From an uncultured Bacilli bacterium (GTDB lineage Bacteria > Bacillota_I > Bacilli_A > RF39 > UBA660), in NCBI GenBank assembly GCA_934177545.1, contig CAKPPI010000001.1, positions 4,255 through 68,254 on the forward strand: a stretch of 64,000 bases of DNA, in the 5' to 3' direction. This document shows positions 16,078 through 64,000 of this stretch, piece by piece. The stretch's first letter is position 1, and each line of letters begins with the position of its first letter. The notes beneath the pieces are model-generated. The model saw nothing but the letters and a program-made list of their open reading frames with translations, was not told the DNA's origin and did no database searches. A program made the position numbers and the translations under genes.

Positions 16078-16164
16078 AGAATCCTCACAATCTTATTGTA
16101 CTATAGATTTTTCTATTTTACAAACGAAAATGGTTGAATAACTAGCAAATATTTGTTATCATTT

Positions 16165-16960
16165 AATTAAAGATAAGGAAGAGGTGATTAACTGTGTATA
16201 TGTCAATCAATATGTCAAGTTTACAACTAGTTAACATGGGGGGGGGCAATTTAGACAGTAATAATACTCTTTTTTATCATGCATTAATAACAGGATAGGA
16301 TTGGCCTTATCTTGTTTTTTAGTGTAAATAAAATAGAAGGAGTGAAAGAAAAAATGAACAACAAAAAGCAATTAATTGTATCAATTGGACTAACCTTAGT
16401 ATTAGTTCTAATGATAGTAGGAATCAGTTATGCAGCTTTTAAGTTTGTAGGACTAGGTCAGAGGGAAAATACTATAACAACAGGAGCTATAACGATGGAG
16501 TATACTGAAAGTACTAATACTATCAGTATGACAGGAGCCTTACCAACAACTGATACAACAGGAAAGGTAAGATTAACTAAAGGAGAATACTTTGATTTTA
16601 CTATTAAAAGTAGTATTCAAGGAAATGCTAATATTAACTGGGAAATAGCAGCAGAAGATATAACACCATCATCAGCTAAAAAGATGGCTGGTAAAAATAT
16701 AAAACTTTATTTAACAAAATTAGATAGTACTGGAGCAGAAACACAGGTAATGGCACCAAAAGTATATAATGTTAGTACGTCAGCAAATACAAAGACAGGA
16801 AGACCATCAGGAGTAATGAGTCTAGCAACAGGAACAATGAGTACAAGTGAGACAACAAACTATCGTCTTAGAATGTATGTAGATGAAGACTATAATCCCC
16901 AAGGAGATGGAGGAGGTTTATCATTTAGTGTTAAGATAAATGCTTATGGAAAAGTAAAAG
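16165..16960 (+). repeat. copy 1 of a ~0.8 kb duplicated segment (promoter region plus 5' CDS) shared with 60271..61060
   Basis: Near-identical sequence from aattaaagataaggaagaggtgatta through the first ~200 codons. It carries a G9 homopolymer at 16238-16246. Confidence 0.85.
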
Positions 16961-18099
16961 AAGCCCCAACAGGTAGTAAGATAAAAGCTTATATGACACA
17001 AGCTGATTATGATAATGATAACTATCCAGAAACAGACTTTCATACTGATGCTTATAGGTCAAAAATAACTAGTATTATCACAAAAAAAGATAATATAGTA
17101 CCAGCAACAGCAGTTGAAAGTTGGGATATCTCAGAAGCAGGTGATGGTTCAGTAATGGCTTATGTAGAGAAAACTGATGAGGTATTGAAACCAGAACCAG
17201 CTAATGCAGAGATATATTCTAATAAAGGAGAAACAAAAGACATGTTAGAAACAATATACGCTACACCTCTTGAGGGAACCAATACTAATTATGCTTATAA
17301 GTTAACAATAGGTGGAAAGGGTGGAATTATTGCAAATGAAAATATGGTAGGTTATTTTTATAAGTTTAAAAGAGTAACATCAATAGATTTGTCATCCTTA
17401 GATACATCGGAAGTAACAAATATGGTTGGAATGTTTAGACACTGTATCAGTTTAACAAGTTTAGATGTAAGTAAGTTTGATACATCGCAAGTAACAGATA
17501 TGAGTAATATGTTTATTGGTTGTGAAAGTTTAACAAATCTAGATGTAAGTAGTTTTGCTACATTAGAAGTAACAGATATGAGTAATATGTTTTATGAGTG
17601 TAGCAGTTTAACAAGTTTAGATTTAAGAAACTTTGATACCTCAAAAGTGACAAATATGAGTTATATGTTTGATTACTGTATCAGTTTAACAAGTTTAGAT
17701 GTAAGTAAGTTTGATACATCTAACGTAACAGATATGAGTTGGATGTTTCGTAATTGTAGCAGTTTAACAAGTTTAGATTTAAGAAACTTTGATACCTCAA
17801 AAGTGACAAATATGAGTGAGATGTTTGGTTATTGTGAAAGTTTAACAAATCTAGATGTAAGTAGTTTTGTTACATTAGAAGTAACAGATATGAGAGGTAT
17901 GTTTAATAATTGTTGCAGTTTAACAAGTTTAGATTTAAGAAGCCTTGATACATCACAAGTAACAGATATGAGTGGTATGTTTGATATATGTAGTAACTTA
18001 ACCCAAATAACTGTTTCTAATAAATGGGTAGTAGGATCAAGTACCTTAACTGATAGAATGTTTTTTAACTGTGGAACTGATCATGTAACTACTATCTAG
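16354..18099 (+). CDS. secreted or surface protein with a conserved N-terminal domain and C-terminal DUF285-type leucine-rich repeats (Mycoplasma/BspA-like)
   Basis: Signal-anchor MNNKKQLIVSIGLTLVLVLMIVGISYAAF. Eight tandem 26-aa repeats fitting C-SLTSLD-S-FDTS-VT-MS-MF. The real start is ATG at 16354; the track ORF starts further upstream. Confidence 0.75.
   Translation: MNNKKQLIVSIGLTLVLVLMIVGISYAAFKFVGLGQRENTITTGAITMEYTESTNTISMTGALPTTDTTGKVRLTKGEYFDFTIKSSIQGNANINWEIAAEDITPSSAKKMAGKNIKLYLTKLDSTGAETQVMAPKVYNVSTSANTKTGRPSGVMSLATGTMSTSETTNYRLRMYVDEDYNPQGDGGGLSFSVKINAYGKVKEAPTGSKIKAYMTQADYDNDNYPETDFHTDAYRSKITSIITKKDNIVPATAVESWDISEAGDGSVMAYVEKTDEVLKPEPANAEIYSNKGETKDMLETIYATPLEGTNTNYAYKLTIGGKGGIIANENMVGYFYKFKRVTSIDLSSLDTSEVTNMVGMFRHCISLTSLDVSKFDTSQVTDMSNMFIGCESLTNLDVSSFATLEVTDMSNMFYECSSLTSLDLRNFDTSKVTNMSYMFDYCISLTSLDVSKFDTSNVTDMSWMFRNCSSLTSLDLRNFDTSKVTNMSEMFGYCESLTNLDVSSFVTLEVTDMRGMFNNCCSLTSLDLRSLDTSQVTDMSGMFDICSNLTQITVSNKWVVGSSTLTDRMFFNCGTDHVTTI
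17380..18010 (+). repeat. tandem array of about eight 78-bp (26-codon) DUF285-type repeats
   Basis: Long exact DNA matches between units, for example agtttaacaagtttagatttaagaaactttgatacctcaaaagtgacaaatatgagt appears twice. Confidence 0.8.
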
Positions 18100-54959: not shown

Positions 54960-55231
54960 ACAAGTTATAAAATAGTATTGTAAACTTTACTAGAAAACGT
55001 TGATGAAGAGAAGTAGTAATACTTGACTTATAAGAGAAGCTGTGGTTGGTGAAAACAGTTAAGAAAAGTATTAACGAATAACACTTCGGAGTGCTTAAAG
55101 AATAAAGTAGACTAAGCCGGGTAGACTCCCGTTAACAAGATAAGCGATTATCATGCTTGATAATAAATTGGGTGGTACCGCGGGTAAAAGACTCGTCCCT
55201 TAACTGGGATTAGAGTCTTTTTCGTTTTCTA
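54960..55231 (+). promoter_or_regulatory. T-box leader (candidate Asn AAC specifier) upstream of gatCAB-aspS2
   Basis: Stem-I distal motif GGUUGGUGAAAACAGUU. T-box sequence AAAUUGGGUGGUACCGCGG (55166-55184). Terminator aagactc...gagtctt followed by a T-run (55187-55231). Confidence 0.65.
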
Positions 55232-60192: not shown

Positions 60193-60270
60193 AGTTTGAC
60201 ATATTAACTGTATAAAATTAGTTTAAAACTAAAAATTAATTGAAAATCACCCCCTCTTTGTGTTAGAATC

Positions 60271-61060
60271 TAATTAAAGATAAGGAAGAGGTGATTACTA
60301 TGTATTTGTCAACCATAATGTCAAGTTTACAATTAGTTAACATGGGGGGGGCAATTTATATAGATTAATCACTTCTTTTTATCATGCATTAATAACGGGA
60401 TAGGACTAGTCTTATCTTGTTTTTTAGTGTAAATAAAATAGAAGGAGTGAATAAGAAAAATGAACAACAAGAAACAACTACTATTATCAATCGGACTTGT
60501 TTTAATACTAGTTCTAATGATAGTAGGAATCAGTTATGCAGCTTTTAAGTTTACTGGAACAGGTCAAAAAGCCAATACTATAACAACAGGTGCAATTACT
60601 ATGAAGTATACAGAGTCAACTAATACAATAAGTATGAATAATGCTCTACCAACAACTGATGCTACTGGGAAAGTAAGATTAACAGCTGGAGAATACTTTG
60701 ATTTTACTTTATCAGGTACAATTAAAGGATCAGAAAACATCAACTGGGAGATAGCAGCAGAAGATGTAACAACAGCATCTAGAAAGATAGATGGTAAATA
60801 TATAAAACTATATTTAACAAGTCTAGATGACACTGGTAATGAGAAAGAGGTAATGGTACCTAAAGTATATAAAACTGAATCAACAGAAAATACATATACT
60901 GGACGTCCTGCTAATATGATGAGTCTAGCTAAAGGAACAACATCTACAAGCTTCTCTACAAAATACCGTCTTAGAATGTATGTAGATGAAAGTTATAACC
61001 CGCAGGGAGATGGAGGAAACTTAGCATTTAGTATAAAGATAAATGCTTATGGTAAAACAG
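60271..61060 (+). repeat. copy 2 of the ~0.8 kb duplicated promoter/5'-CDS segment (G8 tract at 60344-60351)
   Basis: Near-identical to 16165..16960. The homopolymer length differs by one G. Confidence 0.85.
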
Positions 61061-62373
61061 GTGAAATGATGCTTTCTACAGTAGCAGAAGCACTACAAAG
61101 CAATGGACTAGGAGCAAATGGAGTATTTGATACAAGTGACCCAGAGCAGACATTTGTTACTGGAACAGGTCCTGATAACTATATTTGGTATAGTGGAAAA
61201 CTATGGAGAGCAGTATCAATAGATTCAACTGATAACTCTGTAAAATTAGTAACACAGTGGAATATATCAGCCTTACCATATAATGAAGAAAATAATTCTG
61301 AATTTAAAGGAAGCTATATGGAGCAGTGGTTGAATGATACTTCAGTAGATGGTTTCTTAGGAAACCTAAGAGAACCAGATAAATTTATTAAAACAGATAG
61401 TGTTTGGAATGCTACTATGACTAAGGAAACTACAAAGCCAGAGAAGACTACCATGGTAACAGATACTGTAGGTTTACTAAATTTTTATGAGTATACAATG
61501 AGTTACAAAAATGCTAAAGCTGAAACTGGCTATTTAAATAATGGTTTAGAGTGGTGGACGTTGACACCTTATAGTACGTCGAACGTCCGTTACGTCGAGG
61601 GCCGCGGTTACAGCAGCAGCTATAGTCCGGCGCATTCGGATGGCTCTCGCCCATCTATAAATCTAAAATCTGCTGTAAAAATTATAGACGGTGATGGAAC
61701 CAGTAATAATCCGTACAGGCTTCAAGGCGATAATGATAATCCAACAGGAGCATTGTTATCAACAAGATATAGTGGTGAATATATAAGTTTTGGAACCGGC
61801 GAAAATGATCTGTATCGAATAGTAAGCCATGAAAATGGAACTGGTACTAAAATAACAAGTGCTATACCTATAAAATATAGTGGTAGTTATAAAGAGCTTG
61901 CTTTTGGAAGTAATACAACATTTTCTAAAGATAATACAATAGGAACGTTCTTAAATAGTGATTATTTGACAAATGGTACCTATCTAACTAGTGACCAAGT
62001 AAGTATGATAGAAGATAATACAACATGGTATTTGGGAACTGTAGGATATGCTAGTTATAAATTAGCAAAATATCAAGATGCAACAGGTAGCAATCTAACA
62101 ACATCAACTACTACTGCTCAAATAGGACTACTAAGAGTAGGTGAATTAATGGCAGGACAATTTGACAAATATAATAATAATGTTAGTTATTGGACATTAA
62201 CACCTTATAGTACCTCGTACATCCGTGGCGTCAGCTACACCGGTGTCAACGGCGGCTTTCATCCGGCGAATTCGTACGGCTCTCGCCCATCTATGAATCT
62301 AAAATCTAATGTGATAATAACTGGTGGAAAAGGTACGGCTCGGGAACCATTCACTATAAAGTTAGGTAGCTAA
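60460..62373 (+). CDS. secreted or surface protein paralog with a distinct C-terminal region that carries two GC-rich motif repeats
   Basis: The N-terminal ~200 aa are near-identical to the 16354 protein. The C-terminus contains the motifs WWTLTPYSTSNVRYVEGRGYSSSYSPAHSDGSRPSINLKS and YWTLTPYSTSYIRGVSYTGVNGGFHPANSYGSRPSMNLKS. Confidence 0.75.
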   Translation: MNNKKQLLLSIGLVLILVLMIVGISYAAFKFTGTGQKANTITTGAITMKYTESTNTISMNNALPTTDATGKVRLTAGEYFDFTLSGTIKGSENINWEIAAEDVTTASRKIDGKYIKLYLTSLDDTGNEKEVMVPKVYKTESTENTYTGRPANMMSLAKGTTSTSFSTKYRLRMYVDESYNPQGDGGNLAFSIKINAYGKTGEMMLSTVAEALQSNGLGANGVFDTSDPEQTFVTGTGPDNYIWYSGKLWRAVSIDSTDNSVKLVTQWNISALPYNEENNSEFKGSYMEQWLNDTSVDGFLGNLREPDKFIKTDSVWNATMTKETTKPEKTTMVTDTVGLLNFYEYTMSYKNAKAETGYLNNGLEWWTLTPYSTSNVRYVEGRGYSSSYSPAHSDGSRPSINLKSAVKIIDGDGTSNNPYRLQGDNDNPTGALLSTRYSGEYISFGTGENDLYRIVSHENGTGTKITSAIPIKYSGSYKELAFGSNTTFSKDNTIGTFLNSDYLTNGTYLTSDQVSMIEDNTTWYLGTVGYASYKLAKYQDATGSNLTTSTTTAQIGLLRVGELMAGQFDKYNNNVSYWTLTPYSTSYIRGVSYTGVNGGFHPANSYGSRPSMNLKSNVIITGGKGTAREPFTIKLGS

Positions 62374-62474: not shown

Positions 62475-64000
62475 ATGAATATTAGAAAAATTAGTACTAA
62501 GAATTTAGTACGAATACTAGTAGTTTTAATTATTTTAATAGGTGGAATCTTTGCTAAGAAAACATTAACATCTTATGCTTTATTAGAAAGTAGTGAAGCA
62601 CCTAGTAAATTAGTTACTAGTACAGGTAATGTTATGTCTGATAGAGTAAGTCTTTTTGATGACTTAGATGGGGATGAAATTATTTCATTAGTACCTTTCT
62701 ATGGAATGGATGATAATGGTAATAAATATACTGTATATTGTCTTGAGAAAAGTAAAGACTTTGCTCCAAATCAGACAGTAACTAAAGTTAATACACCACT
62801 TGATGATGGATATACCTATATAATAAAAAATGGTTATCCTAATAAAAGCTTAACAGAAAATAATAAAAATGATAATTATTTAACGCAAATAGCAGTATGG
62901 CTCTATCAAGATAGATCAGCAGGTGTAAGTGATACTACTAATGGAGTGCTTACTGCTAATCAAAAAAGTTCAATTAAGAAAAGTAGTTATTATACTGTAA
63001 TTAATAATTTAGTAACAGGAGCGATGAATGCTAAAAACACTACTAATATTACTAATCCGACCTTTAGTGTAAGTAGTGGAACATTATCTACTGATAGTGA
63101 TAATACTTATCTAATCAGTAATGTCATGAGAATAACTTCTAATACTGATGAGTTTATTAACTATAAAGTAGTCGCTTCTAGTAGTGATATTTTAGCAAGT
63201 GATATAGAAATACTTGATGAAAATAATAATGTAATAACTACTAATAGTGCTATAGCTAAAGATAAAGGCTTTAAAATTAGAGTACCTTTAGCAAAGATAA
63301 AGAAAGCATCTAGTATAAATATTGATATTATCAATAACTATAAAGATTATAAGACCTATGGTTATGAACCACCAGAGGGTATGAAAGATACTATGCAAAA
63401 GTCATTTGTATCCTTGCTAGCTGCTAATGTAACATCTAAACAAATATCTACTAGTCTTAATATGCCAGTAGGAAGTATTACTATTAATAAAATAGATAGT
63501 ACTAATAATAACTTAGCTGGAGCTAATTTTACTATTAAGAGATTAGCAACTAATGAAATAGTAGATAGTTTTACTACAACAACTACAGCACATGTAACAT
63601 CTAACTTGTTACCAGGTAATTATGAAATTACCGAAACAGCTGCTCCTAGTGGTTATTATATAACAGATAAGACAACTAATATAACAATAACAAGTAATGC
63701 CTTAAATAAAACTAAAACAATAACTAATAGCCAAGCAGAAGTATCAATTAGAAAGATAGATAGTGTTAGTAAACAAGTAGTAAGTGGGGCAGTTTTGAAA
63801 ATAGTAAATAGTGCTAATCAAACAGTAAAAACTATTACTACTACAAATGACTATACTAAAATAACTGGTCTTTCACTTGGAACTTATAAAGTAGTAGAAG
63901 TAACTGCTCCTGATGGTTATACCGTAAATACTACGGCTAAAGAATTTACTTTAAGTAGTACTAATCCAAAGGTAACTCTAGATTATGCTGATCAACAAAA
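62475..64000 (+). CDS. thioester-domain (TED) adhesin with CnaB/SpaA-type isopeptide domains; the 3' end lies outside the window
   Basis: Signal or TM segment at the N-terminus. Cys in YCLEKSKDF plus TQIAVWLY (the TQxxxW thioester motif). Repeated prealbumin-like domains (ITINKIDSTNNNLAGANFTI...LLPGNYEITETAAPSGY). No stop before position 64000. Confidence 0.65.
   Translation, partial: MNIRKISTKNLVRILVVLIILIGGIFAKKTLTSYALLESSEAPSKLVTSTGNVMSDRVSLFDDLDGDEIISLVPFYGMDDNGNKYTVYCLEKSKDFAPNQTVTKVNTPLDDGYTYIIKNGYPNKSLTENNKNDNYLTQIAVWLYQDRSAGVSDTTNGVLTANQKSSIKKSSYYTVINNLVTGAMNAKNTTNITNPTFSVSSGTLSTDSDNTYLISNVMRITSNTDEFINYKVVASSSDILASDIEILDENNNVITTNSAIAKDKGFKIRVPLAKIKKASSINIDIINNYKDYKTYGYEPPEGMKDTMQKSFVSLLAANVTSKQISTSLNMPVGSITINKIDSTNNNLAGANFTIKRLATNEIVDSFTTTTTAHVTSNLLPGNYEITETAAPSGYYITDKTTNITITSNALNKTKTITNSQAEVSIRKIDSVSKQVVSGAVLKIVNSANQTVKTITTTNDYTKITGLSLGTYKVVEVTAPDGYTVNTTAKEFTLSSTNPKVTLDYADQQ

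Follow-up and report, generated by a model that had tools for sequence, protein, structure and literature searches.

A variable G tract in a leader open reading frame as a possible frame-dependent gate on an intrinsic terminator ahead of surface-protein genes in an uncultured gut Bacilli bacterium

Two surface-protein genes of an uncultured Bacilli bacterium are each preceded by a long run of guanines, and the question raised by these loci is whether the length of such a run switches the gene behind it and, if so, by what route. The DNA analyzed here is one stretch of 64,000 nucleotides, referred to as the window. An earlier note had placed a G9 run at 16238-16246 (locus A) and a G8 run in a paralogous context at 60344-60351 (locus B), and had taken both to lie in the promoter spacers of a shared phase-variable cassette. 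Both runs are present as claimed, inside one duplicated block, and the gene downstream of G9 does encode a DUF285 surface protein (gene A, DUF285 / PARCEL-repeat). The reading favored here, with a probability of about 0.6, is that slipped-strand changes in the tract would shift the frame of a leader open reading frame (ORF), which would gate an intrinsic terminator and in this way switch the surface-protein genes.

The G tracts and the duplicated leaders

The G9 of locus A and the G8 of locus B are the only runs of at least seven Gs in the whole window, the GC content of which is 28.7%. In the shuffled window, 0.23 matches would be expected; five overlapping matches were observed, a count reached in none of 100 shuffles. 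The leaders that carry the runs are each about 190 nt long and 89% identical between the two loci, and the genes behind them are 73% identical over their first 203 codons. No third copy of the duplicated block was found within the 64-kb window. The elements follow in the same order at both loci, namely a promoter-like site, an SD and start codon, the G tract, a terminator, a second SD and the surface-protein gene. The tract thereby lies about 75 nt into the predicted transcript, with the terminator between tract and gene. The features of locus A are the following.

16134..16162, + strand: promoter-like site A, TTGAAT-17-TATCAT with a TG (TGtTATCAT, extended -10), just 5' of the conserved leader
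16172..16278, + strand: P1 hairpin A, dG -28.5 kcal/mol; leader z-score -5.2
16181-16187, + strand: SD of the leader ORF, GAGGTGA, within the P1 5' arm
16194..16298, + strand: leader ORF A, GTG start, 34 codons, MYMSINMSSLQLVNMGGGNLDSNNTLFYHALITG; G9 gives the long frame
16218..16237, + strand: conserved motif AGTTTACA-N3-AGTTAACAT, which holds TTTACA and TTAACA and adjoins the G tract
16238..16246, + strand: G9 homopolymer, Gly-Gly-Gly in the leader ORF; proposed slipped-strand switch
16280..16326, + strand: intrinsic terminator A, core hairpin 16289-16316, T run 16317-16322; dG -17.8 kcal/mol
16335..16342, + strand: gene A SD, AGAAGGAG; single-stranded in the full-leader fold of minimum free energy
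16354..18099, + strand: gene A, 581 aa, shared N-terminal 203-aa module and DUF285 / PARCEL-repeat C-terminal part

Those of locus B are:

60240..60269, + strand: promoter-like site B, TTGAAA-18-TAGAAT with a TG (TGtTAGAAT, extended -10)
60279..60383, + strand: P1 hairpin B, GAUAAGGAAGAGGUGAUUA / UAAUCACUUCUUUUUAUC, dG -34.5 kcal/mol; leader z-score -6.7
60300..60368, + strand: leader ORF B, 22 codons; G8 gives a short frame, with stop TAA at 60366-60368
60344..60351, + strand: G8 homopolymer
60385..60431, + strand: intrinsic terminator B, core hairpin 60394-60421, T run to 60427
60460..62373, + strand: gene B, 637 aa, same N-terminal module and a C-terminal part containing DUF6273

In P1 of locus A, the leader-ORF SD and start codon are on the 5' arm, pyrimidines dominate the 3' arm (CUCUUUUUUAUC) and the G tract is apical. 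The 3' arm also codes for the variable middle of the long peptide. Since several of its pairs are G.U, P1 is best read as an RNA helix of this strand. An invertible DNA switch or inverted repeat was considered and rejected, as the G.U pairs are C-A mismatches on the other strand and the arms flank just ~65 nt. The terminator of locus A has an extended basal helix (UGCAUUAA / UUAGUGUA).

The leader ORFs of the two loci end in different places. At locus A, the TAG stop (16296-16298) falls in the 5' arm of the terminator; at locus B, the ORF stops about 26 nt 5' of the terminator stem. One added G at locus B (G9) would take its ORF to a TAG at 60401-60403 inside the terminator arm, and the peptide would then end in ...FYHALITG, the same as at locus A. 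An ortholog of locus B that does have G9 (L028) has its 34-codon leader ORF annotated as a gene. Beyond the terminator, the sequence TTTAGTGTAAATAAAATAGRAGGAGTGAAAGAA (window 16323-16353), just 5' of the gene ATG, is kept even in paralogs with an unrelated, replaced leader (L011, L015).

Tract length and reading frame among related leaders

Related leaders were collected through a genome scan with the shared N-terminal module, through exact-protein look-ups with AspRS and ZnuA, whose genes flank the loci, and through a metagenome scan for AGTTAACATGGGGGG. They originate from human-gut assemblies of uncultured Bacilli bacterium and Clostridium sp. CAG:451, and at least 12 paralogs are present in one assembly. 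The set used for the frame rule consists of 61 distinct leaders from gut genomes and metagenomes, with about ten unrelated terminator hairpin sequences; counts over these leaders are not independent, because the leaders are kin to one another and homogenized among paralogs. An exact-protein look-up of gene A gave zero matches, and that of gene B gave apparently nothing beyond the window's own assembly. Sequence searches of Pfam, NCBIfam and PDB with the shared N-terminal 203-aa module and the leader peptide returned no significant match. Rfam at its gathering threshold assigned no family to the leaders, the sole match at E <=10 being BtsR1, with 14.5 bits against a threshold of 66.

Tract length varies from 6 to 11 across paralogs and strains, which is the heterogeneity among related genomes that the earlier note had proposed to look for; the lengths were read from consensus short-read metagenome assemblies, in which some contigs have 1-5x coverage. 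In near-isogenic comparisons (different samples, flanks with at most three mismatches in ~120 nt), the length differed in five of eight cases and was the same in three. Strains with an identical AspRS protein carry G8 (the window), G9 (L028) or G10 (L029) at locus B. At least six Gs are kept at the tract position in 56 of the 61 distinct leaders, and identical lengths recur across independent samples (L040 and L041 both have G9). The idea of a shared phase-variable cassette survives in that a hypermutable homopolymer is common to the duplicated surface-protein cassettes, and falls as regards the promoter-spacer mechanism. The loci have what is characteristic of a slipped-strand contingency locus, a homopolymer of at least ~7 nt with length polymorphism between close strains, and from the shift in stop codons a 1-nt change in it is predicted to alter expression.

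The sequence GAGGTGA, followed after 6-9 nt by ATG or GTG, is found in nearly every complete tract-bearing leader (the filter demanded an SD-like motif), and the leader ORF ranges from 22 to 55 codons. A hairpin with a T run is present in all 61 leaders, in about ten sequence classes. In almost all of the 61, a single tract length of every three, or two of three in a few leaders, brings the ORF to its end inside or at the terminator hairpin, in the 5' arm, the loop or the 3' arm depending on the leader, and the other frames stop 25-43 nt upstream of the hairpin. Base composition accounts for part of the open long frame, because stop codons are scarce in every frame of the pyrimidine-rich P1 3' arm. 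The period of three can be followed within one leader class, where G6 (L098) and G9 (L140) give the long frame and G8 (L125) a short one. Leaders that carry a tract are in a short frame in 44 cases and in the long frame in 12, an excess that would fit a family with few members expressed at once. The long-frame leader peptides are annotated as hypothetical proteins, in 51 protein clusters. The layout is that of a leader-ORF attenuator, with a short ORF that has an SD and start codon downstream of a promoter, and an intrinsic terminator that lies between this ORF and the gene and is overlapped by the ORF or the ribosome footprint.

Among the leaders in which the tract is lost or interrupted, those picked up without ascertainment bias are all in the long frame: L009, L022 together with the L037 group (the locus A ortholog in seven samples), L045, and L005, the stop of which is 4 nt before the hairpin. 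The spacing from AACAGG to TTAAT is 15, 18, 15 and 21 nt, respectively, values that are multiples of 3 apart, and the genes downstream are intact (595-598 aa). This pattern supports translation of the leader ORF, as far as can be judged from sequence. Since a gene locked OFF should decay, the intact genes behind tract-less leaders also support the long frame as the permissive state. The locked-long leader P0044 is on 15 contigs, one of them 1.44 Mb, and in the places shown an uninterrupted ORF follows ~55 nt downstream, DUF285 where annotated, with some of these ORFs cut by contig ends.

Several leaders depart from the common form in other ways. In L049 (metagenome contig OJKP01004716), a C-to-T change makes a TAG before the tract in the leader ORF (CCAATAGTTAAC versus CCAACAGTTAAC), and this leader may be locked in the short state. 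The L025 variant (CAVLCG010000029, region upstream of ~4001) is without the G tract and without the terminator; its 20-codon ORF, MTNTFKLSDTLTFFYYALIM, crosses a 14-bp hairpin (CTCTAACTTTCTTT / AAAGAAAGTTAGAG) that abuts the gene SD, and its leader peptide retains the FFYxALI end. A unit of ~25 nt, GTACATTTTAATTCGCAACTATACT, occurs in one to three direct copies in or just upstream of the leader ORF. It was seen in L002, L010, L016 and L020 (upstream of or inside the leader), in L008 and L013, and in long-class metagenome leaders, and the leader ORF remains open across the copies (peptides ...YILIRNYTVHFNSQI...). Many contigs break at this unit, so that it must be repeated across the genome; it is perhaps a small mobile element or one involved in recombination.

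A putative frame-read terminator and its alternatives

Where the P1 3' arm pairs with the SD and start codon, compensatory changes are seen across the leaders. Covariation in P1 was tested by the duplex energies of own versus swapped arms, in place of a covariance model: own arms gave -22.2 and arms swapped between leaders -17.0 kcal/mol, and none of 5000 permutations, in which kinship was uncontrolled, was as good. Two compensatory pairs (130/173 and 132/171) are found in the extended base of the terminator. When the leader was folded with the long-frame stop covered by a ribosome footprint, the terminator was lost; with the footprint over the short-frame stop, it was intact. Two kinds of antiterminator helix (P1 3' arm with terminator 5' arm, and P1 5' arm with terminator 3' arm) were not adopted, being short and without covariation; for the second kind, AAGAUAAGG of the P1 5' arm is complementary to CCUUAUCUU of the terminator 3' arm in one terminator class, with no covariation. 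Pairing of the conserved GUUUACA with a downstream UGUAAAU was discarded, as the variants L001-L003 do not covary.

The tract, its length polymorphism, the geometry of the ORF and the hairpins with their covariation can be read directly from the DNA, and from these we infer translation of the leader ORF, termination at the hairpin, the ON/OFF polarity and a pausing role for P1. In the proposed sequence of events, the conserved extended -10 promoter would give rise to a leader transcript of ~190 nt ahead of each gene, and replication slippage, with one G gained or lost, would change the leader-ORF frame. A ribosome in the long frame would pass the 3' arm of P1 and stop within the terminator hairpin, which would then be unable to fold while the polymerase crosses the T run, allowing transcription to continue into the gene (ON). 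A ribosome in either of the other two frames would stop just after the tract and be released, P1 and the terminator would fold, and transcription would terminate (OFF). P1 might make the polymerase pause and so synchronize it with the ribosome, a role that pause hairpins have in the trp and his leaders. This genome would accordingly have locus A (G9) ON and locus B (G8) OFF, and in general the frame model predicts ON at tract lengths n and n±3 and OFF at n±1.

Some points weigh against this model. Because P1 sequesters the SD and start codon of the leader ORF itself, ribosomes would have to initiate while the leader is still being transcribed. The RNA polymerase of Bacillus subtilis moves ahead of the translating ribosome, and with uncoupling of the Bacillus type it would be harder for a ribosome to control a terminator located ~100 nt beyond the start codon, even though Firmicutes do have ribosome-dependent attenuators. 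Some expression may leak from short alleles, since G runs can cause transcriptional or ribosomal slippage. The motif beside the tract also counts against the frame model, which leaves it unexplained: this AGTTWAC-N-AGTTAACAT motif is conserved regardless of frame. In its fuller form, AGTT(T/A)AC(A/C)-N3/4-AGTTAACAT (16218-16237, 60324-60343), it is nearly invariant in 54 leaders, and as the leader ORF reads it in two frames across leaders, it is conserved as nucleotides. It might represent a pair of half-sites spaced by one helical turn, or else form a 6-bp GUUWAC hairpin.

Homopolymers in promoter spacers are known to act as switches in Mycoplasma hyorhinis vlp and Neisseria meningitidis porA and opc, and the earlier note had proposed the same here, with TTAACA or TTTACA as the -35 of the gene's promoter and the tract length tuning the distance to the -10. 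The two hexamers do stand just 5' of the tract and are nearly invariant there. No conserved -10 follows them at promoter distance. With TTAACA as the -35, a -10 matching at 5/6 or better at 15-19 nt is found in 5 of 53 leaders and not at locus A, which has just GACAGT, and 12 of the 53 are without any -10; TATAGT does occur 15-17 nt downstream in a minority of leaders, and TTAACA-18-TAGATT at locus B scores 9/12, but the leader is least conserved 3' of the tract. A better-conserved promoter with an extended -10 (TTGAAT/TTGAAA-17/18-TGnTAnAAT) stands at a fixed distance upstream of the whole leader in 44 of 53. A transcript from a spacer promoter would have no P1 5' arm and would meet the terminator (16289-16322 at locus A) directly, and such a promoter would predict neither the period-3 frame rule nor the in-frame tract-less alleles. 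The placement of the tract between a -35 and a -10, by which switches of the vlp, porA or opc type are recognized, was not found. A role as promoter spacer is thus highly improbable, and the tract is very probably a hypervariable element of the transcribed leader ORF.

If the tract belongs to the leader ORF, the readout might still differ from the one proposed, and the same phase-variable ORF might act mainly on translation or as a graded dial. In the former case, long-frame translation would melt a structure masking the gene SD, in the manner of ermC or cat. The RNAalifold consensus does pair an anti-SD, ACUUCU, with the gene SD, AGAAGG, at the base of the extended terminator hairpin, and L025 has an SD-proximal hairpin only and no terminator. 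The helix of anti-SD and SD, however, is of 6 bp with three G.U pairs and is absent from the minimum-free-energy fold, in which the gene SD is unpaired, and the canonical hairpin and T run are conserved across ~10 sequence classes. In the case of a dial, transcriptional slippage or ribosomal frameshifting on the G run would leave every allele partly ON and tract length would set the level, and it speaks for this that runs of 8-11 Gs are perfect slippery sites for tRNA-Gly and that long runs can cause polymerase slippage. Taken together, these two variants are judged unlikely. Somewhat more doubtful is a translation-independent RNA element with an incidental small ORF, where the tract would be the target of a C/U-rich small RNA or of a protein, as the G repeat of the Helicobacter pylori tlpB leader is for RepG, or a structural part of a ligand- or protein-responsive leader. 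The strong structure of the leaders (z-scores of -5.2 and -6.7 relative to shuffled sequence) and the conservation of the tract-side sequence as nucleotides whatever the frame would suit such an element, and with no Rfam match it could be an undescribed one. It fails to explain why one frame always ends in the terminator across unrelated hairpins, why 3n indels keep the tract-less alleles in the long frame, why an SD and start codon are always there, and why the ORF is open through the 25-nt repeat insertions. That the length differences have no function at all, reflecting neutral instability or assembly error in a leader regulated otherwise, is very hard to credit. Homopolymers are error-prone and the lengths were taken from metagenome consensus sequences, in part at 1-5x coverage, but the retention of six or more Gs in 56/61 leaders in a genome of 28.7% GC, the same lengths in independent samples (G9 in both L040 and L041), and the conservation of the out-of-frame stop codons and of the in-frame stop position all argue against it.

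Relation to known switches and the surroundings of the two loci

The frame-read terminator would combine features of several known systems. Homopolymer switches in coding regions are known from Neisseria pilC and the Campylobacter contingency genes. The loci described here resemble homopolymer contingency loci in having a run of ~7-11 nt, length polymorphism between close strains and a multigene family of surface proteins, as well as in the stochastic ON/OFF logic proposed; they differ in that the tract is in a separate upstream ORF and its frame would be read out through a terminator. In Neisseria meningitidis siaD, a poly-C frameshift leads to a premature translation stop and intracistronic Rho-dependent termination. 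As in siaD, a frameshift would uncouple translation from transcription and cause termination, but the siaD tract is in the regulated gene itself and works by ordinary polarity, whereas here a dedicated leader ORF and an intrinsic terminator would form a separate module. Variable G runs in a transcribed leader have counterparts in Helicobacter pylori tlpB, where the G repeat is targeted by the small RNA RepG, and in Moraxella catarrhalis uspA1, with a poly-G tract in its 5' region. Those two act through small-RNA pairing and an undefined transcriptional effect, respectively, in contrast to the frame logic of leader ORF and terminator suggested here.

Like the pyrBI, trp and his attenuators, the leaders have a short ORF that follows a promoter and has its own SD, an intrinsic terminator that this ORF overlaps at its end, and, 5' of the terminator, a hairpin (P1 here) that could pause the polymerase. 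The E. coli pyrBI leader ORF extends through the attenuator, where a closely following ribosome prevents the hairpin, and an attenuator of this type needs no antiterminator helix. The leaders differ from these attenuators in having no regulatory codon runs and no supported antiterminator helix, and in that a heritable frameshift would be the input in place of a metabolic cue, for example UTP level or the charging of tRNA. Clostridioides difficile cwpV is a surface ON/OFF switch decided by termination in the 5' leader. Phase variation through Rho-dependent termination in the leader has been described for the C. difficile flgB and E. coli fim switches (PMC12360218). The loci would be like cwpV, flgB and fim in that the state of a surface structure is set by termination in a 5' leader, and unlike them in that those switches are recombinase-flipped DNA segments, while here a homopolymer would be the switch and its readout would depend on the ribosome. 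In the library searched, no precedent came up for a leader-ORF homopolymer that gates a terminator, and we lean, by a modest margin, towards regarding this as a previously undescribed "phase-variable attenuator," in which the position of the ribosome stop, set by a hypermutable G run, would decide whether the terminator forms.

If this is correct, slipped-strand phase variation would be joined to leader-peptide attenuation, two classic mechanisms that have been treated apart, and contingency tracts would have a third kind of site in addition to promoters and coding regions, namely a dedicated upstream ORF read via a terminator. Such switches would be overlooked by screens for tracts in promoters or genes only, or taken for promoter tracts, as in the earlier note. 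At least 12 cassettes, each with the shared N-terminal module and a variable C-terminal domain, would allow combinatorial surface variation, and an uncultured, small-genome lineage of the human gut would have extensive programmed variation of its surface.

The regions around both loci differ among strains as well. On the ZnuA side (L037-L039 and L042-L046 versus window 16165-16400), three allele forms are found, which differ in the N-terminus: MNNKK behind a G9 leader (as in the window), MDKKK behind a leader that lacks the tract, and MEKKK behind a G5 leader; by this comparison, the leader and the 5' part of the gene are replaced allelically. Among orthologs of locus B with identical AspRS, gene B is missing in some strains, in which AspRS is then directly followed by the TED/SpaA gene (L027, L031, L032 versus L028, L029), and in L029 a second leader copy comes after gene B, followed by a further ORF cut by the contig end. 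The locus B cassette is in this way subject to presence/absence and copy-number variation among strains. In the window, a T-box leader (141 bits, 54991-55203) lies upstream of a gatC-gatA-gatB-aspS row that ends just before locus B. The large gene that starts directly downstream of gene B (62477-64000) is without a G-tract leader, and its orthologs carry TED (thioester) and SpaA domains, which make it pilin- or adhesin-like.
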